DNA of 64,000 nt from Rickettsiales bacterium (GTDB lineage Bacteria; Pseudomonadota; Alphaproteobacteria; Rickettsiales; JABIRX01), in contig CBDCUE010000006.1 of the NCBI GenBank assembly GCA_965222515.1, forward strand, positions 1,543 through 65,542. Direction: 5' to 3'. Every line of letters begins with the position of its first letter. Position 1 is the first letter of the stretch. Below are positions 45,552 through 64,000 of the stretch, in pieces. The notes beneath the pieces are model-generated. The model saw only the letters and a program-made list of their open reading frames with translations, was not told the origin of the DNA and ran no database searches. Position numbers and translations under genes: made by a program.

Positions 45552-45555
45552 AATT

Positions 45556-47080: not shown

Positions 47081-47439
47081 GGGAGCGTTAAATCTATTTG
47101 TTTTTAGTTTTCATATTCCTTCCAAACTTTGAAAGATTTTACTTGGTATTTGAGCCAATTATTTCTTTCAAAATCCTTAATGACTACAAAGACATGATCT
47201 AACAATCTGTCTTCATTTTCAAAGCTAATTTTATGTTTATACTATTTTAATTTTATAATTGACCTATAGCCTTCAATCTGCTCAGCATAAATTGCTTTTT
47301 TTAATAATCTGTTAGCTATGGCTAGCAAATCATTAAAAAAAACAATTTCTACTAAACATCTTTTTGGCTATAGGTCAATTATAAAATTAAAATAGTATTA
47401 GTAGCTTTTCTAATCTGACACTTAAGATTTTCTATTCCA
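47081..47439 (-). mobile_element. IS256-family 3' remnant interrupted by a MITE
   Basis: Removing the MITE and one TTA restores IENLKCQIRKATKHKISFENEDRLLDHVFVVIKDFERNNW...*; end GGGAGCGTTAAATC at 47081. Confidence 0.72.
47240..47397. mobile_element. 158-bp MITE, copy 2
   Basis: Perfect 32-bp TIR and TTA target duplication (47237-47239, 47398-47400); inverted relative to 10276-10433. Confidence 0.92.
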
Positions 47440-47627
47440 TAATATAAATGTTCTTGCTGTTTTTTGCACAAATTTCTTTAAAAATTCCTATTTCTAATAG
47501 ATTATTTTAAAATAATAAAATTATCAACTTCTATTATGTTTAAATTTATTTTAATAGATCTTTTATATAAAATTCCTTTTATTATTTTATCCTCAAATTA
47601 TCATTTTTTACCCATACTCACTTACTG

Positions 47628-48125
47628 CTATTTTGTCCAACCTATACAATCCAATATCTCTCCTGTATCTATGTCTATTAAATAATTAAAACCATTCTGT
47701 AATCCCGCACTAAATTCACATTTTGATAAATCTAAATTAGGCTCATCTATCTCTATTTCATGTTTATCTACCATTATTGCATATTCCTTAATAACTTTTC
47801 CATTTTCTTTTATTTCAATAGCCATTCCTACATATACACTATCTTCTTTATACCCCTTATGATTATATTCTGCTACTTGCCATAATAATTTTCCTGTCTG
47901 TTTGCTGTAGCAAAAGAGATTTTCTCTTACTCGTTCTTCAGGAGTGGCATCTCTTGGTGAAATATTTTCTATTTTTTCTCTTGCATAAAAAGCTAAATTT
48001 AACCAATTAACTAAAAAGATTATTCTATCGGGTAATTCTATATATGATAATATTCTACTTTTAAAATCTACCTTAAATTTACCAAACTTTGCTATACTTC
48101 TATTTTTATTTAATTTGATGCTCAT
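47628..48125 (-). CDS. Array putative immunity protein, copy 1
   Basis: 165 aa with LPDRII...NLFCYSKQTGKLLWQV...YLIDIDTGEIL..GWTK; protein identical to copy 5. Confidence 0.85.
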   Translation of the reverse strand: MSIKLNKNRSIAKFGKFKVDFKSRILSYIELPDRIIFLVNWLNLAFYAREKIENISPRDATPEERVRENLFCYSKQTGKLLWQVAEYNHKGYKEDSVYVGMAIEIKENGKVIKEYAIMVDKHEIEIDEPNLDLSKCEFSAGLQNGFNYLIDIDTGEILDCIGWTK

Positions 48126-48132
48126 ATAATTT

Positions 48133-48312
48133 TTATTGTAAAGGTTTTGTATTTAAATACCATTCAGGTTTTATTTCTTGCAATATCTCTGTCTGTAGTC
48201 CTTCTCCTTGTCCAAAACTATTACTCCCTGCTCTTCCTGTTCTTATCTCTCTATTTTTAGGCAATTTTACATCCGTTACCCATAATATAAATGTTCTTGC
48301 TGTTTTTTGCAC
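48133..48312 (-). pseudogene. Toxin-tail ORF (59 codons)
   Basis: GTG...WVTDVKLPKNREIRTGRAGSNSFGQGEGLQTEILQEIKPEWYLNTKPLQ*, ending 7 nt before the next ATG. Confidence 0.65.
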
Positions 48313-48470
48313 AGATTTCTTTAAAAATTCCTATTTCTAATAGATTATTTTAAAATAATAAAATTATCAACTTCTATTATGTTTAAATTTATTTTAATAG
48401 ATCTTTTATATAAAATTCCTTTTATTATTTTATCCTCAAATTATCATTTTTTACCCATACTCACTTACTG

Positions 48471-48968
48471 CTATTTTGTCCAACCTATACAATCCAATAT
48501 CTCTCCTGTATCTATGTCTATTAAATACTCAAAACCATTCTGTAATCCCGCACTAAATTCACATTTTGATAAATCTAAATTAGGCTTATCTATCTCTATT
48601 TCATGTTTATCTACCATTATTGCATATCTCTTCACAACTTTTCCATTTTCTTTTATTTCAATAGCCATTCCTACATATACACTATCTTCTTTATACCCCT
48701 TATGATTATATTCTGCTACTTGCCATAATAATTTTCCTGTCTGTTTGCTGTAGCAAAAGAGATTTTCTCTTACTCGTTCTTCAGGAGTGGCATCTCTTGG
48801 TGAAATATTTTCTATTTTTTCTCTTGCATAAAAAGCTAAATTTAACCAATTAACTAAAAAGATTATTCTATCGGGTAATTCTATATATGATAATATTCTA
48901 CTTTTAAAATCTACCTTAAATTTACCAAACTTTGCTATACTTCTATTTTTATTTAATTTGATGCTCAT
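48471..48968 (-). CDS. Array putative immunity protein, copy 2
   Basis: KSRILS / EDS / VKRY / FEY allele combination. Confidence 0.85.
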   Translation of the reverse strand: MSIKLNKNRSIAKFGKFKVDFKSRILSYIELPDRIIFLVNWLNLAFYAREKIENISPRDATPEERVRENLFCYSKQTGKLLWQVAEYNHKGYKEDSVYVGMAIEIKENGKVVKRYAIMVDKHEIEIDKPNLDLSKCEFSAGLQNGFEYLIDIDTGEILDCIGWTK

Positions 48969-48975
48969 ATAATTT

Positions 48976-49155
48976 TTATTGTAAAGGTTTTGTATTTAAA
49001 TACCATTTAGGTTCTATTTTTTGCAATATCTCTGTCTGTAGTCCTTCTCCTTGCCCAAAACTATTACTCCCTGCTCTTCCTGTTCTTATCTCTCTATTTT
49101 TAGGCAATTCTACATCCGTTACCCATAATATAAATGTTCTTGCTGTTTTTTGCAC
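48976..49155 (-). pseudogene. Toxin-tail ORF
   Basis: Variant DVE..NRE..LQKIEPKW. Confidence 0.6.
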
Positions 49156-49313
49156 AAATTTCTTTAAAAATTCCTATTTCTAATAGATTATTTTAAAATA
49201 ATAAAATTATCAACTTCTATTATGTTTAAATTTATTTTAATAGATCTTTTATATAAAATTCCTTTTATTATTTTATCCTCAAATTATCATTTTTTACCCA
49301 TACTCACTTACTG

Positions 49314-49811
49314 CTATTTTGTCCAACCTATACAATCCAATATCTCTCCTGTATCTATGTCTATTAAATACTCAAAACCATTATGTAATCCCGCACTAAA
49401 TTCACATTTTGATAAATCTAAATTAGGCTTATCTATCTCTATTTCATGTTTATCTACCATTATTGCATATTCCTTAATAACTTTTCCATTTTCTTTTATT
49501 TCAATACCCATTCCTACATATACACTTTTCACTTTATACCCCTTATGATTATATTCTGCTACTTGCCATAATAATTTTCCTGTCTGTTTGCTGTAGCAAA
49601 AGAGATTTTCTCTTACTCGTTCTTCAGGAGTGGCATCTCTTGGTGAAATATTTTCTATTTTTTCTCTTGCATAAAAAGCTAAATTTAACCAATTAACTAA
49701 AAAGATTATTCTATCGGGTAATTCTATATATGATAATATTCTACTTTTAAAATCTACCTTAAATTTACCAAACTTTGCTATACTTCTATTTTTATTTAAT
49801 TTGATGCTCAT
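49314..49811 (-). CDS. Array putative immunity protein, copy 3
   Basis: KSRILS / VKS / GIE / IKEY combination. Confidence 0.85.
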   Translation of the reverse strand: MSIKLNKNRSIAKFGKFKVDFKSRILSYIELPDRIIFLVNWLNLAFYAREKIENISPRDATPEERVRENLFCYSKQTGKLLWQVAEYNHKGYKVKSVYVGMGIEIKENGKVIKEYAIMVDKHEIEIDKPNLDLSKCEFSAGLHNGFEYLIDIDTGEILDCIGWTK

Positions 49812-49818
49812 ATAATTT

Positions 49819-49998
49819 TTATTGTAAAGGTTTTGTATTTAAATACCATTCAGATTTTATTTTTTGCAATATCTCTGTCTGTAGTCCTTCTCCTTGTCCA
49901 AAACTATTACTCCCTGCTCTTCCTGTTCTTATCTCTCTATTTTTAGGCAATTCTACATCCGTTACCCATAATATAAATGTTCTTGCTGTTTTTTGCAC
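49819..49998 (-). pseudogene. Toxin-tail ORF
   Basis: Variant DVE..NRE..LQKIKSEW. Confidence 0.6.
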
Positions 49999-50137
49999 AA
50001 ATTTCTTTAAAAATTCCTATTTCTAATAGATTATTTTAAAATAATAAAATTATCAACTTCTATTATGTTTAAATTTATTTTAATAGATCTTTTATATAAA
50101 ATTCCTTTTATTATTTTTTACCCATACTCACTTACTG

Positions 50138-50641
50138 CTATTTTGTCCAACCTATACAATCCAATATCTCTCCTGTATTTATGTCTATTAAATACTTAAA
50201 ACCATTCTGTAATCCCGCAATAAATTCACATTTTGATAAATCTAAATTAGGCTCATCTATCTCTATTTCATCTTTATCTACCATTATTGCATATCTCTTC
50301 ACAACTTTTCCATTTTCTTTTATATAAAATCTCATTCCTACATATACACTATCTTCTTTATACCCCTTATGATTATATTCTGCTACTTGCCATAATAATT
50401 TTCCTGTCTGTTTGCTGTAGCAAAAGAGATTTTCTCTTACTCGTTCTTCAGGAGTGGCTTCTCTTGGCAGAAGTTCCCTTCCTGCTATTTTTTCTCTTTC
50501 ATGAAAAGCTAAATTTAATGGATTAACTAAAAAAAATATTCTATCAGGTAATGCTATATATGATCTTATAGCAGTTTTAAAATCTACTTTAAATTTACCA
50601 AACTTTGCTATACTTCTATTTTTATTTAATTTGATGCTCAT
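50138..50641 (-). CDS. Array putative immunity protein, copy 4 (167 aa)
   Basis: KTAIRS / AGRELLPRE insertion allele / EDS / RFY. Confidence 0.85.
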   Translation of the reverse strand: MSIKLNKNRSIAKFGKFKVDFKTAIRSYIALPDRIFFLVNPLNLAFHEREKIAGRELLPREATPEERVRENLFCYSKQTGKLLWQVAEYNHKGYKEDSVYVGMRFYIKENGKVVKRYAIMVDKDEIEIDEPNLDLSKCEFIAGLQNGFKYLIDINTGEILDCIGWTK

Positions 50642-50648
50642 ATAATTT

Positions 50649-50828
50649 TTATTGTAAAGGTTTTGTATTTAAATACCATTCAGGTTTTATTTCGTCCAAT
50701 ATCTCTGTCTGTAGTCCTTCTCCTTGCCCAAAACTATTACTCCCTGCTCTTCCTGTTCTTATATCTCTATTTTTAGGCAATTTTACATCCGTTACCCATA
50801 ATATAAATGTTCTTGCTGTTTTTTGCAC
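50649..50828 (-). pseudogene. Toxin-tail ORF
   Basis: Variant DVK..NRD..LDEIKPEW. Confidence 0.6.
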
Positions 50829-50986
50829 AGATTTCTTTAAAAATTCCTATTTCTAATAGATTATTTTAAAATAATAAAATTATCAACTTCTATTATGTTT
50901 AAATTTATTTTAATAGATCTTTTATATAAAATTCCTTTTATTATTTTATCCTCAAATTATCATTTTTTACCCATACTCACTTACTG

Positions 50987-51484
50987 CTATTTTGTCCAAC
51001 CTATACAATCCAATATCTCTCCTGTATCTATGTCTATTAAATAATTAAAACCATTCTGTAATCCCGCACTAAATTCACATTTTGATAAATCTAAATTAGG
51101 CTCATCTATCTCTATTTCATGTTTATCTACCATTATTGCATATTCCTTAATAACTTTTCCATTTTCTTTTATTTCAATAGCCATTCCTACATATACACTA
51201 TCTTCTTTATACCCCTTATGATTATATTCTGCTACTTGCCATAATAATTTTCCTGTCTGTTTGCTGTAGCAAAAGAGATTTTCTCTTACTCGTTCTTCAG
51301 GAGTGGCATCTCTTGGTGAAATATTTTCTATTTTTTCTCTTGCATAAAAAGCTAAATTTAACCAATTAACTAAAAAGATTATTCTATCGGGTAATTCTAT
51401 ATATGATAATATTCTACTTTTAAAATCTACCTTAAATTTACCAAACTTTGCTATACTTCTATTTTTATTTAATTTGATGCTCAT
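50987..51484 (-). CDS. Array putative immunity protein, copy 5
   Basis: Protein identical to copy 1. Confidence 0.85.
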   Translation of the reverse strand: MSIKLNKNRSIAKFGKFKVDFKSRILSYIELPDRIIFLVNWLNLAFYAREKIENISPRDATPEERVRENLFCYSKQTGKLLWQVAEYNHKGYKEDSVYVGMAIEIKENGKVIKEYAIMVDKHEIEIDEPNLDLSKCEFSAGLQNGFNYLIDIDTGEILDCIGWTK

Positions 51485-51491
51485 ATAATTT

Positions 51492-51671
51492 TTATTGTAA
51501 AGGTTTTGTATTTAAATACCATTCAGGTTTTATTTCTTGCAATATCTCTGTCTGTAGTCCTTCTCCTTGTCCAAAACTATTACTCCCTGCTCTTCCTGTT
51601 CTTATCTCTCTATTTTTAGGCAATTTTACATCCGTTACCCATAATATAAATGTTCTTGCTGTTTTTTGCAC
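51492..51671 (-). pseudogene. Toxin-tail ORF
   Basis: Same peptide as 48133-48312. Confidence 0.6.
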
Positions 51672-51829
51672 AGATTTCTTTAAAAATTCCTATTTCTAAT
51701 AGATTATTTTAAAATAATAAAATTATCAACTTCTATTATGTTTAAATTTATTTTAATAGATCTTTTATATAAAATTCCTTTTATTATTTTATCCTCAAAT
51801 TATCATTTTTTACCCATACTCACTTACTG

Positions 51830-52327
51830 CTATTTTGTCCAACCTATACAATCCAATATCTCTCCTGTATCTATGTCTATTAAATACTCAAAACCATTCT
51901 GTAATCCCGCACTAAATTCACATTTTGATAAATCTAAATTAGGCTTATCTATCTCTATTTCATGTTTATCTACCATTATTGCATATCTCTTCACAACTTT
52001 TCCATTTTCTTTTATTTCAATAGCCATTCCTACATATACACTTTTCACTTTATACCCCTTATGATTATATTCTGCTACTTGCCATAATAATTTTCCTGTC
52101 TGTTTGCTGTAGCAAAAGAGATTTTCTCTTACTCGTTCTTCAGGAGTGGCATCTCTTGGTGAAATATTTTCTATTTTCTTTCTTGCATAATAAGCTAAAT
52201 TTAATGGACTAACTAAAAAGATTATTCTATCAGGTAATGCTATATATGATCTTATAGCAGTTTTAAAATCTACCTTAAATTTACCAAACTTTGCTATACT
52301 TCTATTTTTATTTAATTTGATGCTCAT
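51830..52327 (-). CDS. Array putative immunity protein, copy 6
   Basis: KTAIRS / SPL / VKS / VKRY. Confidence 0.85.
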   Translation of the reverse strand: MSIKLNKNRSIAKFGKFKVDFKTAIRSYIALPDRIIFLVSPLNLAYYARKKIENISPRDATPEERVRENLFCYSKQTGKLLWQVAEYNHKGYKVKSVYVGMAIEIKENGKVVKRYAIMVDKHEIEIDKPNLDLSKCEFSAGLQNGFEYLIDIDTGEILDCIGWTK

Positions 52328-52334
52328 ATAATTT

Positions 52335-52514
52335 TTATTGTAAAGGTTTTGTATTTAAATACCATTTAGATTCTATTTTTTGCAATATCTCTGTCTGTAG
52401 TCCTTCTCCTTGTCCAAAACTATTACTCCCTGCTCTTCCTGTTCTTATCTCTGTATTTTTAGGCAATTCTACATCCGTTACCCATAATATAAATGTTCTT
52501 GCTGTTTTTTGCAC
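52335..52514 (-). pseudogene. Toxin-tail ORF
   Basis: Variant DVE..NTE..LQKIESKW. Confidence 0.6.
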
Positions 52515-52672
52515 AGATTTCTTTAAAAATTCCTATTTCTAATAGATTATTTTAAAATAATAAAATTATCAACCTCTATTATGTTTAAATTTATTTTAAT
52601 AGATCTTTTATATAAAATTCCTTTTATTATTTTATCCTCAAATTATCATTTTTTACCCATACTCACTTACTG

Positions 52673-53170
52673 CTATTTTGTCCAACCTATACAATCCAAT
52701 ATCTCTCCTGTATTTATGTCTATTAAATACTCAAAACCATTCTGTAATCCCGCACTAAATTCACATTTTGATAAATCTAAATTAGGCTTATCTATCTCTA
52801 TTTCATGTTTATCTACCATTATTGCATATCTCTTCACAACTTTTCCATTTTCTTTTATTTCAATAGCCATTCCTACATATACACTTTTCACTTTATACCC
52901 CTTATGATTATATTCTGCTACTTGCCATAATAATTTTCCTGTCTGTTTGCTGTAGCAAAAGAGATTTTGTTCTACTTCTTCTTCAGGAGTGGCATCTCTT
53001 GGTGAAATATTTTCTATTTTTTCTCTTGCATAAAAAGCTAAATTAAACCAATTAACTAAAAAGATTATTCTATCAGGTAATTCTATATAAGATAATATTC
53101 TACTTTTAAAATCTACCTTAAATTTACCAAACTTTGCTATACTTCTATTTTTATTTAATTTGATGCTCAT
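52673..53170 (-). CDS. Array putative immunity protein, copy 7
   Basis: KSRILS / NWF / EEEVEQ / VKS. Confidence 0.85.
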   Translation of the reverse strand: MSIKLNKNRSIAKFGKFKVDFKSRILSYIELPDRIIFLVNWFNLAFYAREKIENISPRDATPEEEVEQNLFCYSKQTGKLLWQVAEYNHKGYKVKSVYVGMAIEIKENGKVVKRYAIMVDKHEIEIDKPNLDLSKCEFSAGLQNGFEYLIDINTGEILDCIGWTK

Positions 53171-53177
53171 ATAATTT

Positions 53178-53357
53178 TTATTGTAAAGGTTTTGTATTTA
53201 AATACCATTTAGGTTCTATTTCGTCCAATATCTCTGTCTGTAGTCCTTCTCCTTGTCCAAAACTATTACTCCCTGCTCTTCCTGTTCTTATCTCTCTATT
53301 TTTAGGCAATTCTACATCCGTTACCCATAATATAAATGTTCTTGCTGTTTTTTGCAC
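53178..53357 (-). pseudogene. Toxin-tail ORF
   Basis: Variant DVE..NRE..LDEIEPKW. Confidence 0.6.
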
Positions 53358-53515
53358 AGATTTCTTTAAAAATTCCTATTTCTAATAGATTATTTTAAAA
53401 TAATGAAATTATCAACTTCTATTATGTTTAAATTTATTTTAATAGATCTTTTATATAAAATTCCTTTTATTATTTTATCCTCAAATTATCATTTTTTACC
53501 CATACTCACTTACTG

Positions 53516-54013
53516 CTATTTTGTCCAACCTATACAATCCAATATCTCTCCTGTATTTATGTCTATTAAATACTTAAAACCATTCTGTAATCCCGCAATA
53601 AATTCACATTTTGATAAATCTAAATTAGGCTCATCTATCTCTATTTCATCTTTATCTACCATTATTGCATATCTCTTCACAACTTTTCCATTTTCTTTTA
53701 TATAAAATCTCATTCCTACATATACACTTTTCACTTTATACCCCTTATGATTATATTCTGCTACTTGCCATAATAATTTTCCTGTCTGTTTGCTGTAGCA
53801 AAAGAGATTTTGATCTACTTCTTCTTCAGGAGTGGCATCTCTTGGTGAAATATTTTCTATTTTCTTTCTTGCATAATAAGCTAAATTAAACCAATTAACT
53901 AAAAAGATTATTCTATCGGGTAATTCTATATATGATTTTATAGCAGTTTTAAAATCTACTTTAAATTTACCAAACTTTGCTATACTTCTATTTTTATTTA
54001 ATTTGATGTTCAT
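53516..54013 (-). CDS. Array putative immunity protein, copy 8
   Basis: KTAIKS / NWF / EEEVDQ / VKS / RFY. Confidence 0.85.
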   Translation of the reverse strand: MNIKLNKNRSIAKFGKFKVDFKTAIKSYIELPDRIIFLVNWFNLAYYARKKIENISPRDATPEEEVDQNLFCYSKQTGKLLWQVAEYNHKGYKVKSVYVGMRFYIKENGKVVKRYAIMVDKDEIEIDEPNLDLSKCEFIAGLQNGFKYLIDINTGEILDCIGWTK

Positions 54014-54020
54014 ATAATTT

Positions 54021-54200
54021 TTATTGTAAAGGTTTTGTATTTAAATACCATTTAGGTTTTATTTCGTCCAATATCTCTGTCTGTAGTCCTTCTCCTTGTC
54101 CAAAACTATTACTCCCTGCTCTTCCTGTTCTTATCTCTGTATTTTTAGGCAATTTTACATCCGTTACCCATAATATAAATGTTCTTGCTGTTTTTTGCAC
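54021..54200 (-). pseudogene. Toxin-tail ORF
   Basis: Variant DVK..NTE..LDEIKPKW. Confidence 0.6.
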
Positions 54201-54358
54201 AAATTTCTTTAAAAATTCCTATTTCTAATAGATTATTTTAAAATAATAAAATTATCAACTTCTATTATGTTTAAATTTATTTTAATAGATCTTTTATATA
54301 AAATTCCTTTTATTATTTTATCCTCAAATTATCATTTTTTACCCATACTCACTTACTG

Positions 54359-54856
54359 CTATTTTGTCCAACCTATACAATCCAATATCTCTCCTGTATT
54401 TATGTCTATTAAATACTTAAAACCATTCTGTAATCCCGCACTAAATTCACATTTTGATAAATCTAAATTAGGCTCATCTATCTCTATTTCATGTTTATCT
54501 ACCATTATTGCATATCTCTTCACAACTTTTCCATTTTCTTTTATTTCAATAGCCATTCCTACATATACACTATCTTCTTTATACCCCTTATGATTATATT
54601 CTGCTACTTGCCATAATAATTTTCCTGTCTGTTTGCTGTAGCAAAAGAGATTTTCTCTTACTCGTTCTTCAGGAGTGGCATCTCTTGGTGAAATATTTTC
54701 TATTTTCTTTCTTGCATAATAAGCTAAATTTAATGGACTAACTAAAAAGATTATTCTATCAGGTAATGCTATATATGATCTTATAGCAGTTTTAAAATCT
54801 ACCTTAAATTTACCAAACTTTGCTATACTTCTATTTTTATTTAATTTGATGCTCAT
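54359..54856 (-). CDS. Array putative immunity protein, copy 9
   Basis: KTAIRS / SPL / EDS / FKY; protein identical to copy 11. Confidence 0.85.
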   Translation of the reverse strand: MSIKLNKNRSIAKFGKFKVDFKTAIRSYIALPDRIIFLVSPLNLAYYARKKIENISPRDATPEERVRENLFCYSKQTGKLLWQVAEYNHKGYKEDSVYVGMAIEIKENGKVVKRYAIMVDKHEIEIDEPNLDLSKCEFSAGLQNGFKYLIDINTGEILDCIGWTK

Positions 54857-54863
54857 ATAATTT

Positions 54864-55043
54864 TTATTGTAAAGGTTTTGTATTTAAATACCATTTAGGT
54901 TCTATTTCTTGCAATATCTCTGTCTGTAGTCCTTCTCCTTGTTCAAAACTATTACTCCCTGCTCTTCCTGTTCTTATCTCTCTATTTTTAGGCAATTCTA
55001 CATCCGTTACCCATAATATAAATGTTCTTGCTGTTTTTTGCAC
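54864..55043 (-). pseudogene. Toxin-tail ORF
   Basis: Variant DVE..NRE..SFEQG..LQEIEPKW. Confidence 0.6.
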
Positions 55044-55686
55044 AGATTTCTTTAAAAATTCCTATTTCTAATAGATTATTTTAAAATAATAAAATTATCA
55101 ACTTCTATTATGTTTAAATTTATTTTAATAGATCTTTTATATAAAATTCCTTTTATTATTTTATCCTCAAATTATCATTTTTTACCCATACTCACTTACT
55201 GCTATTTTGTCCAACCTATACAATCCAATATCTCTCCTGTATCTATGTCTATTAAATAATTAAAACCATTCTGTAATCCCGCACTAAATTCACATTTTGA
55301 TAAATCTAAATTAGGCTTATCTATCTCTATTTCATGTTTATCTACCATTATTGCATATCTCTTCACAACTTTTTCATTTTCTTTTATTTCAATAGCCATT
55401 CCTACATATACACTTTTCACTTTATACCCCTTATGATTATATTCTGCTACTTGCCATAATAATTTTCCTGTCTGTTTGCTGTAGCAAAAGAGATTTTGAT
55501 CTACTTCTTCTTCAGGAGTGGCATCTCTTGGTGAAATATTTTCTATTTTTTCTCTTGCATAAAAAGCTAAATTAAACCAATTAACTAAAAAGATTATTCT
55601 ATCAGGTAATTCTATATAAGATAATATTCTACTTTTAAAATCTACCTTAAATTTACCAAACTTTGCTATACTTCTATTTTTATTTA

Positions 55687-57351
55687 GAGTCTGCTGAATT
55701 AGATAATATTTTCCAATAAAAAATTAATTCTTTCCAAAAGACATTTTTTTAAATTTTAAAAATATATTTTCAAATTATTTTTTAATCCATTTTTAGTTTT
55801 TTATTTAATTTTTAATGTAATATTTGTATTAAACCTCTCTTAATGCTTTAAATAAGTTAAAACTAACCATAGCTATACTAGTTTGAATGGCAGCTCCATT
55901 CATAGTTTTCAACACTATTTTATTTAATGTGTAATCTTTTTTTAAATTTCCTATTACCCCCTCAACTCTAGACCTTGATTTCCTCAATTTCCTTTTTTCT
56001 AATTTTTGCTTAGCTGTAGATTTTCCTTGATTCTTAAGACTATGTTTTATATCAAAACTCTTTAATAAAGCTTTATTATCAAACGAAGAATAACCATCAT
56101 CTATCAGAACCTTCTTCGGCAATCTCTCAAATCTATCTTGATGATTTGCTAAACTATTCTTTAATTCTAACTTCTCATTAAATGCCCTATGCTCTACTTT
56201 ATCACTAAACACATAACCATCTGTTAAAGCTATATGTGCCTTTGCTCCAAATTCTGTTTTTTTACCTCCTTCCTTGCCTCTTTTGATTGGTCTTACAAAT
56301 GGTTGGTCAAAACTTATTATTCTGCCTGGAATACTTGTAACCTTTTCTTTGTATTTTCTTTGTTGTTGCCTAAAAATCTCTTTTCCTACTACTAACTTTT
56401 TTTCTATTTCCTTTATTAACCCTTGTAAACCCACCTCCTCAATCAATCCTAACTGAAAATTACCAGACGATAATTTCTTCTTTGCTCCCTTTATTATTGC
56501 TACCAATTGATTAATATTTCTATTAGTAAAATTCAACATTTTCCTAGTTGCCTTATTTATTACTTTCTTGTTCTTCTGCTTCTTTTTTGCAAAATCTAAA
56601 TATACTTTCTTTGCTTTTCTTTTGTAAGTTCTTATCTTCTCTTCTATTTTGAACTTTTTTTTTAATATATCTATTTGCTTAATTGCATAACTTCTTACAG
56701 TATTAAGCAATTTTACATCATTTGGATATTCTATTTTACTCTCAAACACTGTACCATCAAGCAACAATTCTTTTCCTTTGACAAACCTTTTATCCTTTAG
56801 CACCTCTAATATTTCTGATTCAAATTTTAAAAAATACTCTGCTCCTAATTTATTTCTTCTTTTTGTTAATAAGCTAGGATCCATCACTTTTGTTATCTTG
56901 CTTACAAAAGTATCATAACCACAAAAATATTGAAAATATGGATTTTCATAAAAATATTCTAATATCTCAACATCACTCAAACCTAATCTTACTTTACCGA
57001 TAAGCAAACCTAGCACTAATTTAGCTGATTTTACCACTCCCAATCTTTTAGGATCAAAATATTTATCATGAAGTGCAATCAAATTATCCCAAGGAACTAG
57101 CTCTGATAATTTTATCCATCTGTTGTTTTCGTCTAACTTACCTCCAAAAGGCATCATATCTGCAAATAATGGTAATGTTCTCATAGCAATGTCTAAAAAA
57201 AATTATATTTTTTTCTAAAAAAGTGCAAAGGTTTTCTCGTCATTATCTTCAAACCTTTGCATTTTTACTCAAAAATCTAACATAAATATACCACTCAAAC
57301 CCTTATAATACAACCCTTTTCCTTGCTTTTTTTACCTAATTCAGCAGACTC
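55687..57351 (-). mobile_element. IS5-like element, 1665 bp, 6-bp target duplication
   Basis: 16-bp perfect IR GAGTCTGCTGAATTAG / CTAATTCAGCAGACTC; TATTTA duplicated at 55681-55686 and 57352-57357. Confidence 0.93.
55829..57184 (-). CDS. IS5-like DDE transposase
   Basis: NRWIKLSELVPWD, ENPYFQYFCG, LLDGTV....I.YPND, EFGAK, LIDDGY, RSRVEGVIG. Confidence 0.9.
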   Translation of the reverse strand: MRTLPLFADMMPFGGKLDENNRWIKLSELVPWDNLIALHDKYFDPKRLGVVKSAKLVLGLLIGKVRLGLSDVEILEYFYENPYFQYFCGYDTFVSKITKVMDPSLLTKRRNKLGAEYFLKFESEILEVLKDKRFVKGKELLLDGTVFESKIEYPNDVKLLNTVRSYAIKQIDILKKKFKIEEKIRTYKRKAKKVYLDFAKKKQKNKKVINKATRKMLNFTNRNINQLVAIIKGAKKKLSSGNFQLGLIEEVGLQGLIKEIEKKLVVGKEIFRQQQRKYKEKVTSIPGRIISFDQPFVRPIKRGKEGGKKTEFGAKAHIALTDGYVFSDKVEHRAFNEKLELKNSLANHQDRFERLPKKVLIDDGYSSFDNKALLKSFDIKHSLKNQGKSTAKQKLEKRKLRKSRSRVEGVIGNLKKDYTLNKIVLKTMNGAAIQTSIAMVSFNLFKALREV

Positions 57352-57377
57352 TATTTAATTTGATGCTCATATAATTT

Positions 57378-57557
57378 TTATTGTAAAGGTTTTGTATTTA
57401 AATACCATTTAGATTCTATTTTTTGCAATATCTCTGTCTGTAGTCCTTCTCCTTGTCCAAAACTATTACTCCCTGCTCTTCCTGTTCTTATATCTCTATT
57501 TTTAGGCAATTCTACATCCGTTACCCATAATATAAATGTTCTTGCTGTTTTTTGCAC
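57378..57557 (-). pseudogene. Toxin-tail ORF
   Basis: Variant DVE..NRD..LQKIESKW. Confidence 0.6.
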
Positions 57558-57715
57558 AAATTTCTTTAAAAATTCCTATTTCTAATAGATTATTTTAAAA
57601 TAATAAAATTATCAACTTCTATTATGTTTAAATTTATTTTAATAGATCTTTTATATAAAATTCCTTTTATTATTTTATCCTCAAATTATCATTTTTTACC
57701 CATACTCACTTACTG

Positions 57716-58213
57716 CTATTTTGTCCAACCTATACAATCCAATATCTCTCCTGTATTTATGTCTATTAAATACTTAAAACCATTCTGTAATCCCGCACTA
57801 AATTCACATTTTGATAAATCTAAATTAGGCTCATCTATCTCTATTTCATGTTTATCTACCATTATTGCATATCTCTTCACAACTTTTCCATTTTCTTTTA
57901 TTTCAATAGCCATTCCTACATATACACTATCTTCTTTATACCCCTTATGATTATATTCTGCTACTTGCCATAATAATTTTCCTGTCTGTTTGCTGTAGCA
58001 AAAGAGATTTTCTCTTACTCGTTCTTCAGGAGTGGCATCTCTTGGTGAAATATTTTCTATTTTCTTTCTTGCATAATAAGCTAAATTTAATGGACTAACT
58101 AAAAAGATTATTCTATCAGGTAATGCTATATATGATCTTATAGCAGTTTTAAAATCTACCTTAAATTTACCAAACTTTGCTATACTTCTATTTTTATTTA
58201 ATTTGATGCTCAT
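57716..58213 (-). CDS. Array putative immunity protein, copy 11
   Basis: Protein identical to copy 9. Confidence 0.85.
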   Translation of the reverse strand: MSIKLNKNRSIAKFGKFKVDFKTAIRSYIALPDRIIFLVSPLNLAYYARKKIENISPRDATPEERVRENLFCYSKQTGKLLWQVAEYNHKGYKEDSVYVGMAIEIKENGKVVKRYAIMVDKHEIEIDEPNLDLSKCEFSAGLQNGFKYLIDINTGEILDCIGWTK

Positions 58214-58220
58214 ATAATTT

Positions 58221-58400
58221 TTATTGTAAAGGTTTTGTATTTAAATACCATTTAGGTTCTATTTCTTGCAATATCTCTGTCTGTAGTCCTTCTCCTTGCC
58301 CAAAACTATTACTCCCTGCTCTTCCTGTTCTTATCTCTGTATTTTTAGGCAATTTTACATCCGTTACCCATAATATAAATGTTCTTGCTGTTTTTTGCAC
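58221..58400 (-). pseudogene. Toxin-tail ORF
   Basis: Variant DVK..NTE..LQEIEPKW. Confidence 0.6.
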
Positions 58401-58558
58401 AAATTTCTTTAAAAATTCCTATTTCTAATAGATTATTTTAAAATAATAAAATTATCAACTTCTATTATGTTTAAATTTATTTTAATAGATCTTTTATATA
58501 AAATTCCTTTTATTATTTTATCCTCAAATTATCATTTTTTACCCATACTCACTTACTG

Positions 58559-59047
58559 CTATTTTGTCCAACCTATACAATCCAATATCTCTCCTGTATT
58601 TATGTCTATTAAATACTTAAAACCATTCTGTAATCCCGCAATAAATTCACATTTTGATAAATCTAAATTAGGCTCATCTATCTCTATTTCATCTTTATCT
58701 ACCATTATTGCATATCTCTTCACAACTTTTCCATTTTCTTTTATATAAAATCTCATTCCTACATATACACTTTTCACTTTATACCCCTTATGATTATATT
58801 CTGCTACTTGCCATAATAATTTTCCTGTCTGTTTGCTGTAGCAAAAGAGATTTTGACTTATTTCGTATAAATTAGTTGCATGATACCAATTTAATAAAAT
58901 TATTATTCTATCTGGTAACTCTATTAAATATTTAATTTCATTAGGAGCTTTTATAACTAAATTATTATCTAATTCTATATTAGTATTTACAAAAGTCTCT
59001 TCCCCAGCAGATAAAATCTTCTTTGTTTTATGTAATTTATATCCCAT
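58559..59047 (-). CDS. Array putative immunity protein, copy 12, divergent N-terminal half
   Basis: MGYKLHKTKK...IELPDRIIILLNWYHATNLYEISQNLF, then the same C-terminal half as copy 8. Confidence 0.85.
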   Translation of the reverse strand: MGYKLHKTKKILSAGEETFVNTNIELDNNLVIKAPNEIKYLIELPDRIIILLNWYHATNLYEISQNLFCYSKQTGKLLWQVAEYNHKGYKVKSVYVGMRFYIKENGKVVKRYAIMVDKDEIEIDEPNLDLSKCEFIAGLQNGFKYLIDINTGEILDCIGWTK

Positions 59048-59049
59048 TT

Positions 59050-59238
59050 TTATTTTATTTTAATTGTATTTTTAAACCAATTCGAATTAATGTCTTCTCT
59101 AGGTACCAATATCTCTGTCTGTAGTCCTTCTCCTTGTCCAAAACTATTACTCCCTGCTCTTCCTGTTCTTATCTCTGTATTTTTAGGCAATTTTACATCC
59201 GTTACCCATAATATAAATGTTCTTGCTGTTTTTTGCAC
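59050..59238 (-). pseudogene. Toxin-tail ORF with divergent tip
   Basis: ...GLQTEILVPREDINSNWFKNTIKIK*. Confidence 0.65.
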
Positions 59239-59396
59239 AGATTTCTTTAAAAATTCCTATTTCTAATAGATTATTTTAAAATAATGAAATTATCAACTTC
59301 TATTATGTTTAAATTTATTTTAATAGATCTTTTATATAAAATTCCTTTTATTATTTTATCCTCAAATTATCATTTTTTACCCATACTCACTTACTG

Positions 59397-59894
59397 CTAT
59401 TTTGTCCAACCTATACAATCCAATATCTCTCCTGTATCTATGTCTATTAAATAATTAAAACCATTCTGTAATCCCGCACTAAATTCACATTTTGATAAAT
59501 CTAAATTAGGCTCATCTATCTCTATTTCATGTTTATCTACCATTATTTCATATTCCTTAATAACTTTTCCATTTTCTTTTATTTCAATACCCATTCCTAC
59601 ATATACACTTTTCACTTTATACCCCTTATGATTATATTCTGCTACTTGCCATAATAATTTTCCTGTCTGTTTGCTGTAGCAAAAGAGATTTTCTCTTACT
59701 CGTTCTTCAGGAGTGGCATCTCTTGGTGAAATATTTTCTATTTTCTTTCTTGCATAATAAGCTAAATTTAATGGACTAACTAAAAAGATTATTCTATCAG
59801 GTAATGCTATATATGATCTTATAGCAGTTTTAAAATCTACCTTAAATTTACCAAACTTTGCTATACTTCTATTTTTATTTAATTTGATGCTCAT
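59397..59894 (-). CDS. Array putative immunity protein, copy 13
   Basis: KTAIRS / SPL / VKS / GIE / IKEYE. Confidence 0.85.
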   Translation of the reverse strand: MSIKLNKNRSIAKFGKFKVDFKTAIRSYIALPDRIIFLVSPLNLAYYARKKIENISPRDATPEERVRENLFCYSKQTGKLLWQVAEYNHKGYKVKSVYVGMGIEIKENGKVIKEYEIMVDKHEIEIDEPNLDLSKCEFSAGLQNGFNYLIDIDTGEILDCIGWTK

Positions 59895-59901
59895 ATAATT
59901 T

Positions 59902-60081
59902 TTATTGTAAAGGTTTTGTATTTAAATACCATTCAGGTTTTTTTTTGTCCAATATCTCTGTCTGTAGCCCTTCTCCTTGTCCAAAATTATTACTCCCTGC
60001 TCTTCCTGTTCTTATCTCTGTATTTTTAGGCAATTTTACATCCGTTACCCATAATATAAATGTTCTTGCTGTTTTTTGCAC
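59902..60081 (-). pseudogene. Toxin-tail ORF
   Basis: Variant DVK..NTE..GSNNF..LDKKKPEW. Confidence 0.6.
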
Positions 60082-60239
60082 AAATTTCTTTAAAAATTCC
60101 TATTTCTAATAGATTATTTTAAAATAATAAAATTATCAACTTCTATTATGTTTAAATTTATTTTAATAGATCTTTTATATAAAATTCCTTTTATTATTTT
60201 ATCCTCAAATTATCATTTTTTACCCATACTCACTTACTG

Positions 60240-60743
60240 CTATTTTGTCCAACCTATACAATCCAATATCTCTCCTGTATCTATGTCTATTAAATAATTA
60301 AAACCATTCTGTAATCCCGCACTAAATTCACATTTTGATAAATCTAAATTAGGCTCATCTATCTCTATTTCATGTTTATCTACCATTATTGCATATTCCT
60401 TAATAACTTTTCCATTTTCTTTTATTTCAATACCCATTCCTACATATACACTTTTCACTTTATACCCCTTATGATTATATTCTGCTACTTGCCATAATAA
60501 TTTTCCTGTCTGTTTGCTGTAGCAAAAGAGATTTTCTCTTACTCGTTCTTCAGGAGTGGCTTCCTCTGGCATAAGTTCTCTTCCTGCTATTTTTTCTCTT
60601 TCATGAAAAGCTAAATTTAATGGATTAACTAAAAAGATTATTCTATCGGGTAATGCTATATATGATCTTATAGCAGTTTTAAAATCTACCTTAAATTTAC
60701 CAAACTTTGCTATACTTCTATTTTTATTTAATTTGATGCTCAT
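60240..60743 (-). CDS. Array putative immunity protein, copy 14 (167 aa)
   Basis: KTAIRS / AGRELMPEE / VKS / GIE. Confidence 0.85.
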   Translation of the reverse strand: MSIKLNKNRSIAKFGKFKVDFKTAIRSYIALPDRIIFLVNPLNLAFHEREKIAGRELMPEEATPEERVRENLFCYSKQTGKLLWQVAEYNHKGYKVKSVYVGMGIEIKENGKVIKEYAIMVDKHEIEIDEPNLDLSKCEFSAGLQNGFNYLIDIDTGEILDCIGWTK

Positions 60744-60750
60744 ATAATTT

Positions 60751-60930
60751 TTATTGTAAAGGTTTTGTATTTAAATACCATTCAGATTTTATTTTGTCCA
60801 ATATCTCTGTCTGTAGTCCTTCTCCTTGTCCAAAACTATTACTCCCTGCTCTTCCTGTTCTTATATCTCTATTTTTAGGCAATTTTACATCCGTTACCCA
60901 TAATATAAATGTTCTTGCTGTTTTTTGCAC
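60751..60930 (-). pseudogene. Toxin-tail ORF
   Basis: Variant DVK..NRD..LDKIKSEW. Confidence 0.6.
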
Positions 60931-61088
60931 AGATTTCTTTAAAAATTCCTATTTCTAATAGATTATTTTAAAATAATAAAATTATCAACTTCTATTATGT
61001 TTAAATTTATTTTAATAGATCTTTTATATAAAATTCCTTTTATTATTTTATCCTCAAATTATCATTTTTTACCCATACTCACTTACTG

Positions 61089-61494
61089 CTATTTTGTCCA
61101 ACCTATACAATCCAATATCTCTCCTGTATCTATGTCTATTAAATAATTAAAACCATTCTGTAATCCCGCACTAAATTCACATTTTGATAAATCTAAATTA
61201 GGCTCATCTATCTCTATTTCATGTTTATCTACCATTATTTCATATTCCTTAATAACTTTTCCATTTTCTTTTATTTCAATACCCATTCCTACATATACAC
61301 TATCTTCTTTATACCCCTTATGATTATATTCTGCTACTTGCCATAATAATTTTCCTGTCTGTTTGCTGTAGCAAAAGAGATTTTGACTTATTTCGTATAA
61401 ATTAGTTGCATGATACCAATTTAATAAAATTATTATTCTATCTGGTAACTCTATTAAATATTTAATTTCATTAGGAGCTTTTATAACTAAATTA
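61089..61494 (-). pseudogene. Array putative immunity gene copy 15 (copy-12-type N-half), 5'-truncated by IS5
   Basis: Homology to 58559-59047 stops at NLVIKAPNE, where the IS end GTCGTCCC begins; the ORF-track start at 61580 lies inside the IS. Confidence 0.85.
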
Positions 61495-62986
61495 GTCGTC
61501 CCTAAAAAACTATAAAAAGCCTTGCAGTATAAGGTTTTTTTTGTATAATTTGCATAGTAAAAACACAAGCTTATTACCAATAACTCTTAAAACCTTGCAA
61601 AAATGTTACACAAAACTCACCAAACAGGAAATGATATGGATATGTTCAGAAATGAATTAGTAAATATCATAAATATGAAACATAAATTAGTAATATTGTC
61701 AAAATTAGTAGATTGGAGAAGCATGGAAAAGAAGTTTTCTATAAAATATAGTAATTTGGGAAGAGGAGGACTACCTATAAGATTAATGTGTGGATTATTG
61801 ATGTTAAAAGAAATAGAAAAGCAATCAGATGAAAAGATATGTGAGCTTTGGGTAGAGAATCCATATTATCAATATTTTTGTGGAAGTAGATATTTTGAGC
61901 ATAAGTTACCAACAGTTCCAGAGAATTTGGTGTATTTTAGAAAAAGAATAGGAGAAGAAGGGATGGAATATTTGTTTTCAGAAACAATAGAAATAGCAAA
62001 AAATACAAAAGTTTTAAAATCAGCTGATTTTAAAAGAGTAACAGTAGATAGCACAGTTCAAGAAAAAGCAATAACTTATCCTACAGATACTAAGCTGTGC
62101 CATAAAGCAAGGGAGAGTTTGGTAAAGTTGGCAGAAGCAGAGGGTATAAAATTGAGGCAGAATTATAAAATAGTTGGTAAAAAGAGTCTTTTTATGTCAG
62201 CGAGATACAGTATGTCAAGAAAGGGTAGAAAAGCAAAAGCAGAACAGAAAAAAGTAAAGAATTATTTGGGTAGAGTAATAAGGGATATTGATAATAAGAA
62301 AGGAGATTTGAAAAACAATAGTAAATTATTTCAAGCATTGCTAAGAGCAAAGTTAATTTACAATCAGCAAAGAACGGATAAGAATAAGATTTATTCATGG
62401 CATGAAGATGTGAGTTGCATAAGTAAGGGAAAAGCTCACAAGAAATATGAGTTTGGTTGTAAAGTAGGTTTTGTAGTAAGTTCTAGGTCAAATTTTGTTT
62501 TAGGAGCAAAATCATTTGATAACAATCCGTATGATGGACATACATTAAAATCTAATTTGAAACAAGCAGAAAGGTTGAGTGGCAAGAGTTTTAGGAAGGT
62601 TTATGTTGATCAAGGCTATAAAGATCATGGAATAAAAGATAAAAATGTTATTGTGGCAAGAACAAGAAAGAAAACATTATCTATTTTGCAAAAGAAATAT
62701 CAAAAACGAAGAAATGCGATAGAGCCAGTGATAGGTCATATTAAAAATGATGGCTCAAGGGGGGCAAGATGTTATCTTAAAGGAAAAATGGGCGATAATA
62801 TGAATGGCAATAGCAACTGCTATGGGATTTAACTTAAGAAAGCTGTTAAACTGCATAGATAGTTATCTTTTTGCCAAAATCCAAATGGTAATTTTTGTAA
62901 TAAAAAGTATTTTTTTAAGAAAAAACACACTTTTTATTATTTAATAATTGTTAATTTAACTAAAAATGTAATTATTTAGGTGCTAC
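61495..62986 (+). mobile_element. IS5-family element with non-matching flanks
   Basis: Ends TA|GTCGTCCCTAAA and TTTAGGTGCTAC|TA (compare GTCGCACCTAAA at 42588). The left flank is array gene; the right flank is IS3 sequence equivalent to 44473. Confidence 0.88.
61603..62832 (+). CDS. IS5-family transposase, frameshifted near the C-terminus
   Basis: ENPYYQYFCG, VDSTVQEKAITYPTD, KYEFGCKV, GNPYDGHTL-like NNPYDGHTL, VDQGY; extra G near 62805 relative to the 42712-43017 copy. Confidence 0.9.
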   Translation: MLHKTHQTGNDMDMFRNELVNIINMKHKLVILSKLVDWRSMEKKFSIKYSNLGRGGLPIRLMCGLLMLKEIEKQSDEKICELWVENPYYQYFCGSRYFEHKLPTVPENLVYFRKRIGEEGMEYLFSETIEIAKNTKVLKSADFKRVTVDSTVQEKAITYPTDTKLCHKARESLVKLAEAEGIKLRQNYKIVGKKSLFMSARYSMSRKGRKAKAEQKKVKNYLGRVIRDIDNKKGDLKNNSKLFQALLRAKLIYNQQRTDKNKIYSWHEDVSCISKGKAHKKYEFGCKVGFVVSSRSNFVLGAKSFDNNPYDGHTLKSNLKQAERLSGKSFRKVYVDQGYKDHGIKDKNVIVARTRKKTLSILQKKYQKRRNAIEPVIGHIKNDGSRGARCYLKGKMGDNMNGNSNCYGI

Positions 62987-63595
62987 TATCTAGTTTTTTA
63001 AATGATAAAATTAGCAATAATTTTATCATTATTTATGTAATTTTATCTCATTATTTGATTTAAAATTACAAAGGTTTTAATGGTTTTTTTTAGGAATAAA
63101 TTAAAGGCAAATTCTATCTTAAATTTTTCTAAAACCTGTCCAGTCAAAAGGGCTCACCATACTTGGTATGTTCTTAAATCATCAATTGAATTTATTGCTA
63201 TAAAATCATTCGCTAAACTGCTTTGATGAGTTATTATAAATGCTATAAAAATTAAAAATGCTTTTAACATTATTCTTTCTTTCTGTTTTTTTAAAATTTA
63301 ACTTTTTTAGTATCTTTTATCTTTTCTTATTTTGATAGAGATTTTTTAATCTTTTTTAAAATCTTTCCAAAAATCTTCTTTTTCAAATTCTTCTAAACAA
63401 AAATCTTCTTTTCATAGTCTTTAGCCCTTATAAATATTCTTACTTGGATCTTTTAATCCATCTCCTGTATCACAATTATACCAATCTCCCTTAAGGGCTT
63501 TGCAAGATTTCTTATATTCTTCTATCTCTTTCTTGCTCATATCCTCCATATCTTCTTCATCCTCCTCTCCATCATAATACCAATAGGCTGATGGA
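62987..63595. repeat. Near-identical second copy of 44473-45069 (IS3 right end, toxin stub, intergenic, 3' end of the DUF596-like gene)
   Basis: Direct alignment with a few substitutions and 12 extra nt near 63365. Confidence 0.93.
63163..63270 (-). pseudogene. 36-codon 5' stub of toxin-like gene, copy 2
   Basis: Identical to 44649-44756, with the same IS3 junction. Confidence 0.82.
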
Positions 63596-64000
63596 GGGAG
63601 TCCATAAAAATAAAAATCTAAATGAGTATCAAAACTTACCTTTTGTTTTGTTCCGCAATATTTTTCATCTCCTTCTTTAGGAAAACTTTTATCAAAATAA
63701 GCAATCACATCTTCTGTTTTTGTTTTTTCATCAAATTTTACATAGTCTTTTGTATTTTCACGATAATCCTTTGGTAATTCATCCATTAAAGCTTCTCTGC
63801 TTGTGTATCCTTTTCCCTTAAACCTCAATAACCCCTTCCTCATATAATATTCTATTAATTCCAAAAATATCTGCTTCTTTTCGCTTAGAGGGAGGTTTAA
63901 AGTTTTTGCTGGATATATTGTATTATCCCATATATCTATTGGTTTTACAAATGGATACTCCATATCATCCTCAAGATTTTTTAAATCATATTGATCTAAA
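63421..64000 (-). CDS. Second DUF596-like putative immunity protein (5' end outside window)
   Basis: Frame is open to the window edge (LDQYDLKNLEDDMEY aligns with LEEYEVDKLEDIMKE of 44895-45551); shares FLELIEYYMRKGLLRF and a near-identical C-terminus. Confidence 0.65.
   Translation of the reverse strand, partial: LDQYDLKNLEDDMEYPFVKPIDIWDNTIYPAKTLNLPLSEKKQIFLELIEYYMRKGLLRFKGKGYTSREALMDELPKDYRENTKDYVKFDEKTKTEDVIAYFDKSFPKEGDEKYCGTKQKVSFDTHLDFYFYGLPPSAYWYYDGEEDEEDMEDMSKKEIEEYKKSCKALKGDWYNCDTGDGLKDPSKNIYKG

Follow-up and report, generated by a model that had tools for sequence, protein, structure and literature searches.

Orphan cdiA-CT/cdiI and rhs-CT/rhsI modules have been proposed to serve as an immunity repertoire and as a recombination reservoir (Poole et al., 2011, PMC3150448; Koskiniemi et al., 2014, PMC3967940). 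The structures of Tne2, Rhs1-CT, Tse6 and fungal NAD glycohydrolases (NADases) have been grouped as a TNT-like NADase family, and the solved relative of the toxin domain described below has a seven-stranded sheet (Hagan et al., 2023, PMC10539506). We analyzed a 64,000-nucleotide (nt) stretch of contig CBDCUE010000006.1 from a Rickettsiales bacterium (hereafter the window), which carries a minus-strand tandem array of putative immunity genes at 47435..61494. All but the first of these genes are preceded by a short open reading frame (ORF) that we call the tail ORF. These 59-codon frames are probably relics of a toxin gene that was copied together with its immunity gene into a tandem immunity array, and not a designed small gene.

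The unit of the array is 843 nt long and comprises a 158-nt spacer, the 180-nt tail ORF, 7 nt and a 498-nt immunity gene. There are 15 immunity genes, 14 tails and one terminal stub, with units numbered here U0 to U14. All 14 intact tail ORFs lie on the minus strand and start with GTG, and none contains a stop or frameshift (0/14). They encode 13 distinct peptides, the count that the initial annotation of this DNA had given; the peptides of U10 (51492-51671) and U14 (48133-48312) are identical. Thirteen are 59 residues (aa) long, with the tail stop 7 nt from the downstream ATG, the spacing previously given as the normal one; the remaining variant (U3) is 62 aa long and ends 2 nt from the ATG. 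The residues that commonly vary are K/E16, R/T21, E/D22, Q/D45, E/K46, K/E48, P/S49 and E/K50. Upstream of the GTG the tail reading frame stays open for just 6 codons.

Only residues 12-59 of the tail are toxin-derived. A family hidden Markov model (HMM), from whose building the tails were excluded, matches 14/14 tails with E 1e-10 to 1e-12, covering HMM positions 105-153 of 158 and positions 18-65 of the 65-aa frame. The tail corresponds to the last ~48 aa of a ~125-aa polymorphic-toxin C-terminal domain. A search with a tail-profile HMM recovered long toxins (276-695 aa) that end in the tail motif at ~40% identity, among them PT-TG, Rhs-type and JGI-named filamentous hemagglutinin proteins. 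Such C-terminal matches occur in proteins of 695 aa (P0034), 614 aa (P0035; Peptidase_M48 + PT-TG) and 522 aa (P0046; PT-TG), and in two further long proteins with Rhs-like ends (P0043, 667 aa, and P0045). These proteins bear out the proposal that the peptide is a toxin tail. The proposal does not extend to the whole ORF: its first 11 codons, GTG included, are duplication-junction DNA. A second family search gathered 123 members, many of them filamentous hemagglutinins by JGI name and one (P0124) a DUF4237 protein by UniRef name. The domain consensus is PPY..G..V.EF....FVRVHG....W.MK...IEGLTP.QIKDKFALP..P..I.DV..P.GT..R.G......WG.GGG.QYEL.......F.N.R.L.

The AlphaFold2 (AF2) model of a full-length family member (P0050) has a predicted local distance difference test score (pLDDT) of 94.3. 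The top PDB matches to this model in Foldseek are Tne2 (6b12), Rhs1-CT (6xtd), Tse6 (4zv4) and the fungal structures 6ygf and 8pms (Aspergillus/Neurospora NADases), at probabilities of 0.96-1.0 and template modeling (TM) scores of 0.43-0.66; the match is to the whole family domain, of which the window tails span just the last four strands. Twelve family members gave no match to Pfam (TNT, PF14021, included) at E<=10, the family profile gave no match in a PDB sequence search at E<=10, and the tails gave no match to Pfam or NCBIfam. The earlier guess of a TNT-like or TreTu-like lobe holds in its TNT-like part at the level of fold, because the P0050 model best matches TNT-like NADases, and not by sequence. 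By fold class the family is a predicted TNT-like NAD(P)+ glycohydrolase, and its members would be expected to have NADase activity. Two residues, the invariant Gln of GxGGGxQ and the Arg of FVRVHG, resemble the active-site pattern of TNT. The tails retain the invariant Gln (GEGLQ; the glutamine of GxGxQ) and are without the N-terminal two thirds of the domain; since these include the conserved Arg of FVRVHG, the tails cannot be active toxins. The tail ORFs, with the evidence for each, are as follows.

60751..60930, minus strand: tail ORF U1 (59 aa); family HMM E ~1e-10.
59902..60081, minus strand: tail ORF U2 (59 aa; singletons S32N and I47K); ORF list, family HMM.
59050..59238, minus strand: tail ORF U3 (62 aa; divergent tip VPREDINSNWFKNTIKIK, the last 18 residues); ORF list, alignment, family HMM.
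58221..58400, minus strand: tail ORF U4; ORF list, family HMM.
57378..57557, minus strand: tail ORF U5; ORF list, family HMM.
54864..55043, minus strand: tail ORF U6 (G34E); ORF list.
54021..54200, minus strand: tail ORF U7; ORF list, family HMM.
53178..53357, minus strand: tail ORF U8; ORF list, family HMM.
52335..52514, minus strand: tail ORF U9; ORF list, family HMM.
51492..51671, minus strand: tail ORF U10 (identical to U14); ORF list.
50649..50828, minus strand: tail ORF U11; ORF list, family HMM.
49819..49998, minus strand: tail ORF U12 (19-nt deletion in spacer); ORF list, alignment.
48976..49155, minus strand: tail ORF U13; ORF list, family HMM.
48133..48312, minus strand: tail ORF U14; ORF list, family HMM.

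None of residues 1-11 (MQKTARTFILW), the GTG or the spacer derives from the toxin; the boundary between flank and toxin falls within the tail ORF, between ILW and VTDV. Array homology ends exactly there, between W11 and V12: the last copy, a truncated 15th that lies outside the range first annotated, reads TFILW and then AATAG, the 3' end of the duplicated segment.

47435..47469, minus strand: terminal stub, GTG..TFILW.

A 74-aa remnant from another genome (P0190) reads MKRSEIEGLSPKQIKDKFALPEVPRYI directly before TDVELPKN and has genuine toxin core 5' of TDV. Spacer and junction part together hold 3 segregating sites in 191 nt. The 19-nt deletion in the U12 spacer (AAATGATAATTTGAGGAT region, ~50099-50117) is the sole indel among the 14 aligned spacers.

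As the simplest reading of these boundaries, a single tandem duplication would have joined the downstream flank in frame to the last 48 toxin codons, and amplification would have followed. The ancestral locus may have held a secreted polymorphic toxin with a TNT-like C-terminal domain and, 7 nt on, a DUF7957-type immunity gene. The duplicated segment would have run from 48 codons before the toxin stop to ~190 nt beyond the immunity stop, its downstream flank supplying the spacer, the GTG and MQKTARTFILW, joined in frame to the toxin codon V of VTDV. Because such a junction fused flank in frame to toxin, all units would carry one chimeric ORF of 11 junction and 48 toxin codons, the remnant amounting to the predicted last four β-strands of the domain. 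Unequal crossing-over could then have expanded the array to 15 immunity genes, and units could have swapped patches through invariant blocks, either with one another or with older cognate toxin-immunity alleles. Such swapping would have left variation concentrated in segments of the immunity gene and in the toxin loop that follows the catalytic strand, with tail sites still matched to the immunity gene of their own unit. The toxin gene would later have been lost here, leaving a head stub, with a segment containing an insertion sequence (IS) in place of its body. At present the array may serve as an immunity repertoire of multiple specificities, directed at related NADase toxins from competitors, and the tails may have a secondary role as homology handles that keep toxin tip and immunity gene together in recombination.

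The genes downstream of the tails encode proteins of 165-167 aa (162 aa in U3) that are relatives of DUF7957 (PF25857). A precomputed PF25857 match exists for the cluster representative of the type-B variant (P0023). Alignment of the window immunity proteins with DUF7957 genes by hhalign gave a probability of 96.4% and E 1.1e-9 over 106 columns, and the window proteins bear two lineage-specific insertions relative to those genes. A local Pfam scan gave no PF25857 match for the immunity genes, nor for the gene at locus L001 that is annotated with it; NCBIfam gave no match on the immunity genes, and a literature search found no paper that mentions DUF7957. A DUF7957 gene of ~116 aa stands directly 3' of the toxin homologue in 4/4 other loci (L001, L002/L003, L004/L005 and L006), and native toxin-immunity pairs of the family overlap or abut at L001 and L006. 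We infer that the downstream genes encode immunity proteins, and we refer to them as immunity genes:

61089..61494, minus strand: immunity gene U0 (type-B N-terminus; 5'-truncated by the IS-containing segment).
60240..60743, minus strand: immunity gene U1 (167 aa, DUF7957-like).
59397..59894, minus strand: immunity gene U2 (165 aa).
58559..59047, minus strand: immunity gene U3 (162 aa, type B; cluster representative P0023, with the precomputed PF25857 match).
57716..58213, minus strand: immunity gene U4.
55202..57370, minus strand: immunity gene U5 (interrupted after codon 6 by an IS5-family element).
54359..54856, minus strand: immunity gene U6.
53516..54013, minus strand: immunity gene U7.
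52673..53170, minus strand: immunity gene U8.
51830..52327, minus strand: immunity gene U9.
50987..51484, minus strand: immunity gene U10.
50138..50641, minus strand: immunity gene U11 (167 aa).
49314..49811, minus strand: immunity gene U12.
48471..48968, minus strand: immunity gene U13.
47628..48125, minus strand: immunity gene U14.

Two sets of listed ORFs were set aside. The 163-aa TTG ORF at U0 has a spurious start, and the repeated immunity genes give rise, as antisense artefacts, to the plus-strand ORFs of 100-108 aa within the array (MFKFILIDLLYK...).

The divergence of the U3 tail continues into the N-terminal half of the U3 immunity gene. The type-B units (58559-59238 and 61089-61494) have in common a single uninterrupted stretch of divergence, which extends from tail codon 45 to roughly immunity codon 70 between invariant GLQTEIL and NLFCYSKQTGKLLWQ blocks. 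It has the appearance of one segment, imported or converted, in which the toxin tip and half of the immunity gene are carried together.

Among the other loci, L002-L005 (gut metagenome, contigs of metagenome-assembled genomes) encode ~216-aa members of the toxin family with short N-terminal regions, paired with 116-aa DUF7957 genes, at a conserved chromosomal site and not at Rhs or contact-dependent inhibition (CDI) loci. Locus L006 (5155-6638, Legionella lytica CP071527.1) is an island of orphan toxin fragments, in which a 94-aa Pfam-TNT fragment and a 76-aa gene precede a 95-aa piece of a toxin of the present family with its DUF7957 gene; this order places TNT proper and the present family side by side.

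Variation is concentrated in the coding parts of the unit. Segregating-site density is about sixfold higher in the toxin part of the tail (0.090) than in spacer plus junction (0.016; Fisher p=0.002), and synonymous sites of the immunity gene, at a density of 0.11, exceed the spacer's 0.016 seven times (Fisher p=0.001). Since the synonymous sites are also far above the spacer, the coding variation would be older than the spacer, or the spacer would be homogenised or constrained. Non-synonymous changes make up 12 of the 14 segregating tail sites, and to that extent the earlier description of the changes as mostly non-synonymous and often charge-reversing stands. The 12:2 ratio lies within chance given 79% non-synonymous sites by composition (p=0.42), and the excess over neutral variation that the earlier reading required does not go beyond chance. 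In frame, the ratio of non-synonymous to synonymous polymorphism (pN/pS) is 2.4; one off-frame reading gives 2.7. The chance of no stop arising among 14 mutations is ~0.4. Selection for an open frame or for non-synonymous change is not demonstrable, both being within chance. The G34E singleton in U6 changes a nearly invariant glycine of the family, a sign of decay.

The unit alignment shows invariant blocks and mosaic segments. The minimum number of recombination events (Rm) is 18 across the whole unit, all four gametes are found in 40 of 45 tail site pairs, and the same tail alleles recur among 29 distinct tails in three genomes, of which the two other array-bearing contigs contribute 16 further tails.

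Several points limit the relic explanation or count against it. The remnant that preserves toxin core 5' of TDV, P0190, is known as a protein only, and the head of an intact array has not been seen as DNA. At a pLDDT of 59.6, the AF2 model of the immunity protein does not allow a fold search. Linkage between tail sites is very low even at 3-6 nt (r2 0.24, against 0.88 in the immunity gene), which is unusual for two-parent gene conversion. Finally, tail and immunity gene covary within units. Tail sites have a mean best r2 of 0.44 with the immunity gene of their own unit; permutation gives 0.25 (p=0.001), and the values with the upstream and the next unit are 0.26 and 0.32, respectively. Seven site pairs reach r2>=0.5 against 1.2 expected (p=0.004), a result robust to removal of duplicate units; these permutation tests ignore the shared descent of whole units and cover only 13 units. 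Associations this specific, with no decay over distance, are more readily accounted for by a pairing that is, or recently was, selected; they fit a relic only if the units were captured as cognate pairs.

Every common tail site has a different best partner in its own-unit immunity gene. Tail K/E16 and the immunity E/K of EID[E/K]PN (E/K130), 544 nt apart, bear opposite charges in 13/14 units (r2 0.73). The partner of R/T21 is the AFYAREK/AYYARKK block (immunity residues 46-50; r2 0.71), and that of K/E48 and E/K50 is VIKEY/VVKRY (immunity residues 112-116; r2 0.54 and 0.73, respectively). Background r2 is 0.05-0.18 and likewise shows no decay over distance, and the strongest immunity partners sit in the two lineage-specific insertions. 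The covariation between tail and adjacent immunity alleles that the initial annotation had thought worth checking is borne out to a suggestive degree by the seven pairs, and the data are suggestive of units that are, or derive from, cognate toxin-immunity pairs. The associations also allow a stronger claim, that the array is a working archive of co-evolved toxin-loop/immunity pairs, in which selection matches each tail to its own immunity gene, for example through the charge swap between tail K/E16 and immunity E/K130, and a full-length toxin gene, of this lineage or met after transfer, can have its specificity switched by recombination together with the immunity; we regard this as unlikely. 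Were it true, the array would be a natural read-out of the toxin and immunity residues in contact.

A related explanation, which we find doubtful, treats the tails as silent cassettes kept as donors: recombination at the invariant VTDV...TEIL block would swap the toxin loop and bring in the matching immunity gene, as in orphan cdiA-CT/rhs-CT modules, which are known to fuse to the main gene (PMC3150448; PMC3967940). A toxin-derived block of ~100 nt is indeed nearly invariant 5' of the hypervariable loop, tail alleles remain matched to the immunity gene of their own unit, and the 29 distinct tails of the three genomes reuse identical sites. However, no recipient was found. The family HMM detects no N-terminal toxin-domain sequence anywhere in the window, and an intact recipient toxin gene is seen neither there nor among the recorded proteins of the three array-bearing contigs. 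When a near-identical full-length toxin was sought by word-indexed search among 5.8 billion protein clusters, only orphans of 59-62 aa, on three contigs, were recovered, and all proteins with this tail in those clusters are 59-74 aa long, P0190 being the longest. Scans of genome contigs with the immunity gene and with a 479-aa toxin from the window, a metagenome scan with the tail and a plasmid search with one array unit found nothing. The search for a full-length toxin that had been recommended thus yielded the distant long toxins described above and no intact cognate toxin in the databases. In addition, deletion-type switching would lose the intervening immunity genes, the singleton changes include the one at the conserved glycine, and the likely recipient has been cut down to a 38-codon stub beside an IS:

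63154..63270, minus strand: 38-codon secreted-toxin head stub (signal peptide + FIAINSID).
61495..63153, plus strand: IS-containing segment (409-aa DDE transposase at 61603-62832).
55686-57352 (1667 bp): IS5-family element inside the U5 immunity gene, with 18-nt inverted ends and an AAAT target duplication.

The head stub and the N-terminus of the 479-aa toxin-like gene (45556-46995) share 61% identity, and the stub is the likely head of the lost cognate toxin. The IS-containing segment occupies the place of the upstream toxin body, the toxin's C-terminal domain and the 5' end of immunity gene U0. The cognate toxin body was probably deleted here, and IS insertion would have caused the deletion. 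The IS5 family of the element in U5 was assigned from an IS transposase search in plasmids.

Retention of the tail for translational coupling, in which the tail ORF would be translated and terminating ribosomes would re-initiate at the immunity ATG 7 nt on, was first raised because that ATG has no evident Shine-Dalgarno (SD) sequence. The identical 7-nt spacing in 13 units and the overlapping or abutting native pairs at L001 and L006 are in keeping with coupling, but an SD-like motif is found in only 1 of 36 long ORFs scored in the window (1-46995 and 63421-63963), including the largest genes of housekeeping size and the ORFs next to these. The absence of an SD sequence, shared by the other 35, is the genomic norm and gives no reason to invoke coupling. 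The context of the immunity ATG (AAAAATTAT ATG) is typical for the genome, that of the GTG is no better, and the GTG lies in junction DNA as invariant as non-coding spacer. Open frames are expected by chance at the probability given above. We consider coupling very unlikely.

That the tail is an independent small protein under diversifying selection, such as a decoy or regulator that binds its own immunity protein, we judge very unlikely. Every copy is intact, the variation is mostly charge-changing and tail sites covary with the immunity gene; against this, the pN/pS of 2.4 derives from the same 12:2 sites and is matched off frame, the N-terminal 11 residues come from non-coding flank, and the tail, which has four strands where the sheet of the domain's solved relative has seven, is unlikely to fold alone. 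Targeted hypermutation, for example by a diversity-generating retroelement, can be dismissed with near certainty: it would suit combinatorial variation at five sites in 16 nt with almost no linkage, but the substitutions (A/G, G/C, G/T, C/T, A/C) are not adenine-specific, the large non-array ORFs within the array or adjoining its upstream end are DDE transposases only, and the same few alleles recur in other genomes.

The array lies among other mobile and toxin-like sequences. The order on the minus strand is a 180-aa gene, the head stub, the IS-containing segment, the array, a 160-nt palindrome, the 479-aa toxin-like gene with a 218-aa partner, and IS3 remnants. The last toxin-like pair forms a second module (44895-46995, minus strand), consisting of the 479-aa secreted protein, which has no Pfam domain, and the 218-aa gene (44895-45551) 4 nt on. 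The 180-aa gene upstream of the array (63421-63963, minus strand) is 55% identical to the 218-aa gene. The palindrome (47239-47398), ~35 nt past the terminal stub and upstream of the 479-aa gene, has two arms of 78 nt, 83% complementary and 4 nt apart; it may represent a large hairpin or else a palindromic element that is mobile. The C-terminal end of the 409-aa transposase has a close counterpart in a 101-aa transposase fragment (42712-43017), and an IS3-like element is broken into three ORFs at 43210-44326. An Rfam scan of the window gave no match, promoter and terminator scans performed no better than on shuffled sequence, and no terminators were found. NCBIfam markers in the window are alphaproteobacterial (CcrM, 5-aminolevulinate synthase, addB_alphas and a eukaryote-type NADP-IDH), GC content is ~28% and several IS elements are present; the host is possibly an endosymbiont. 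The scarcity of SD motifs had at first suggested Bacteroidota, an affiliation rejected on account of these markers.

An unnamed clade of TNT-fold polymorphic toxins gains a likely immunity partner in the uncharacterised DUF7957 family, and the locus represents an extreme immunity-only island, with 15 paralogues and the toxin gone. Its toxin leftovers, through their site-specific associations, offer concrete residue pairs for the toxin-immunity interface and for specificity diversification. The array also serves as a caution for annotation, in that a repeated, intact and variable small ORF may be a duplication-junction chimera and not a gene.

Among described systems, the array resembles the orphan cdiA-CT/cdiI and rhs-CT/rhsI modules (PMC3150448; PMC3967940) in having IS elements nearby and, ahead of each immunity gene, a toxin 3' fragment devoid of secretion domains. 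Those modules are arrayed 3' of a toxin locus, where here a head stub and an IS-containing segment lie upstream and no intact gene is seen. A toxin 3' fragment that has no delivery domain, is directly followed by an immunity gene and is repeated occurs in both. Classical orphans usually carry the whole toxin domain from VENN or PxxxxDPxGL onward, and families differ between modules; the present units lack a whole domain from a pre-toxin motif (only HMM 105-153 of 158 is present), and have instead the last 48 of ~125 residues, one identical junction and a single toxin-immunity family, with no full-length gene left. With the tandem esaG/tipC immunity strings (Garrett et al., 2022, PMC9484751) the array shares many non-identical paralogues, invariant blocks flanking variable segments, and mosaics and copy-number change by homologous recombination. 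Those strings are described as immunity genes only, whereas the present paralogues each carry a covarying toxin remnant, and toxin (TNT-like fold), immunity protein (DUF7957) and host (alphaproteobacterial markers) are all different.

TNT, Tse6, Tne2 and Serratia Rhs1-CT (PMC10539506) are the best matches to the predicted fold of the full domain, one member of which is named DUF4237; the immunity protein here is DUF7957 and not IFT, Tsi6, Tni2 or RhsI1, and the window holds a fragment only. The Rickettsia CRCT/CRCA toxins with arrayed antidotes (Verhoeve et al., 2022, PMC9111745) are similar by description, with small or truncated C-terminal toxin pieces and duplicated antidotes near hemagglutinin-like or Rhs-like genes, and likewise belong to an AT-rich alphaproteobacterial genome, although TNT or NAD is not mentioned in that work. 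The array is thus an orphan array of toxin remnants and immunity genes and also a recombining string of immunity paralogues, both known kinds, built from a toxin clade and a DUF7957 partner that appear not to have been described before.

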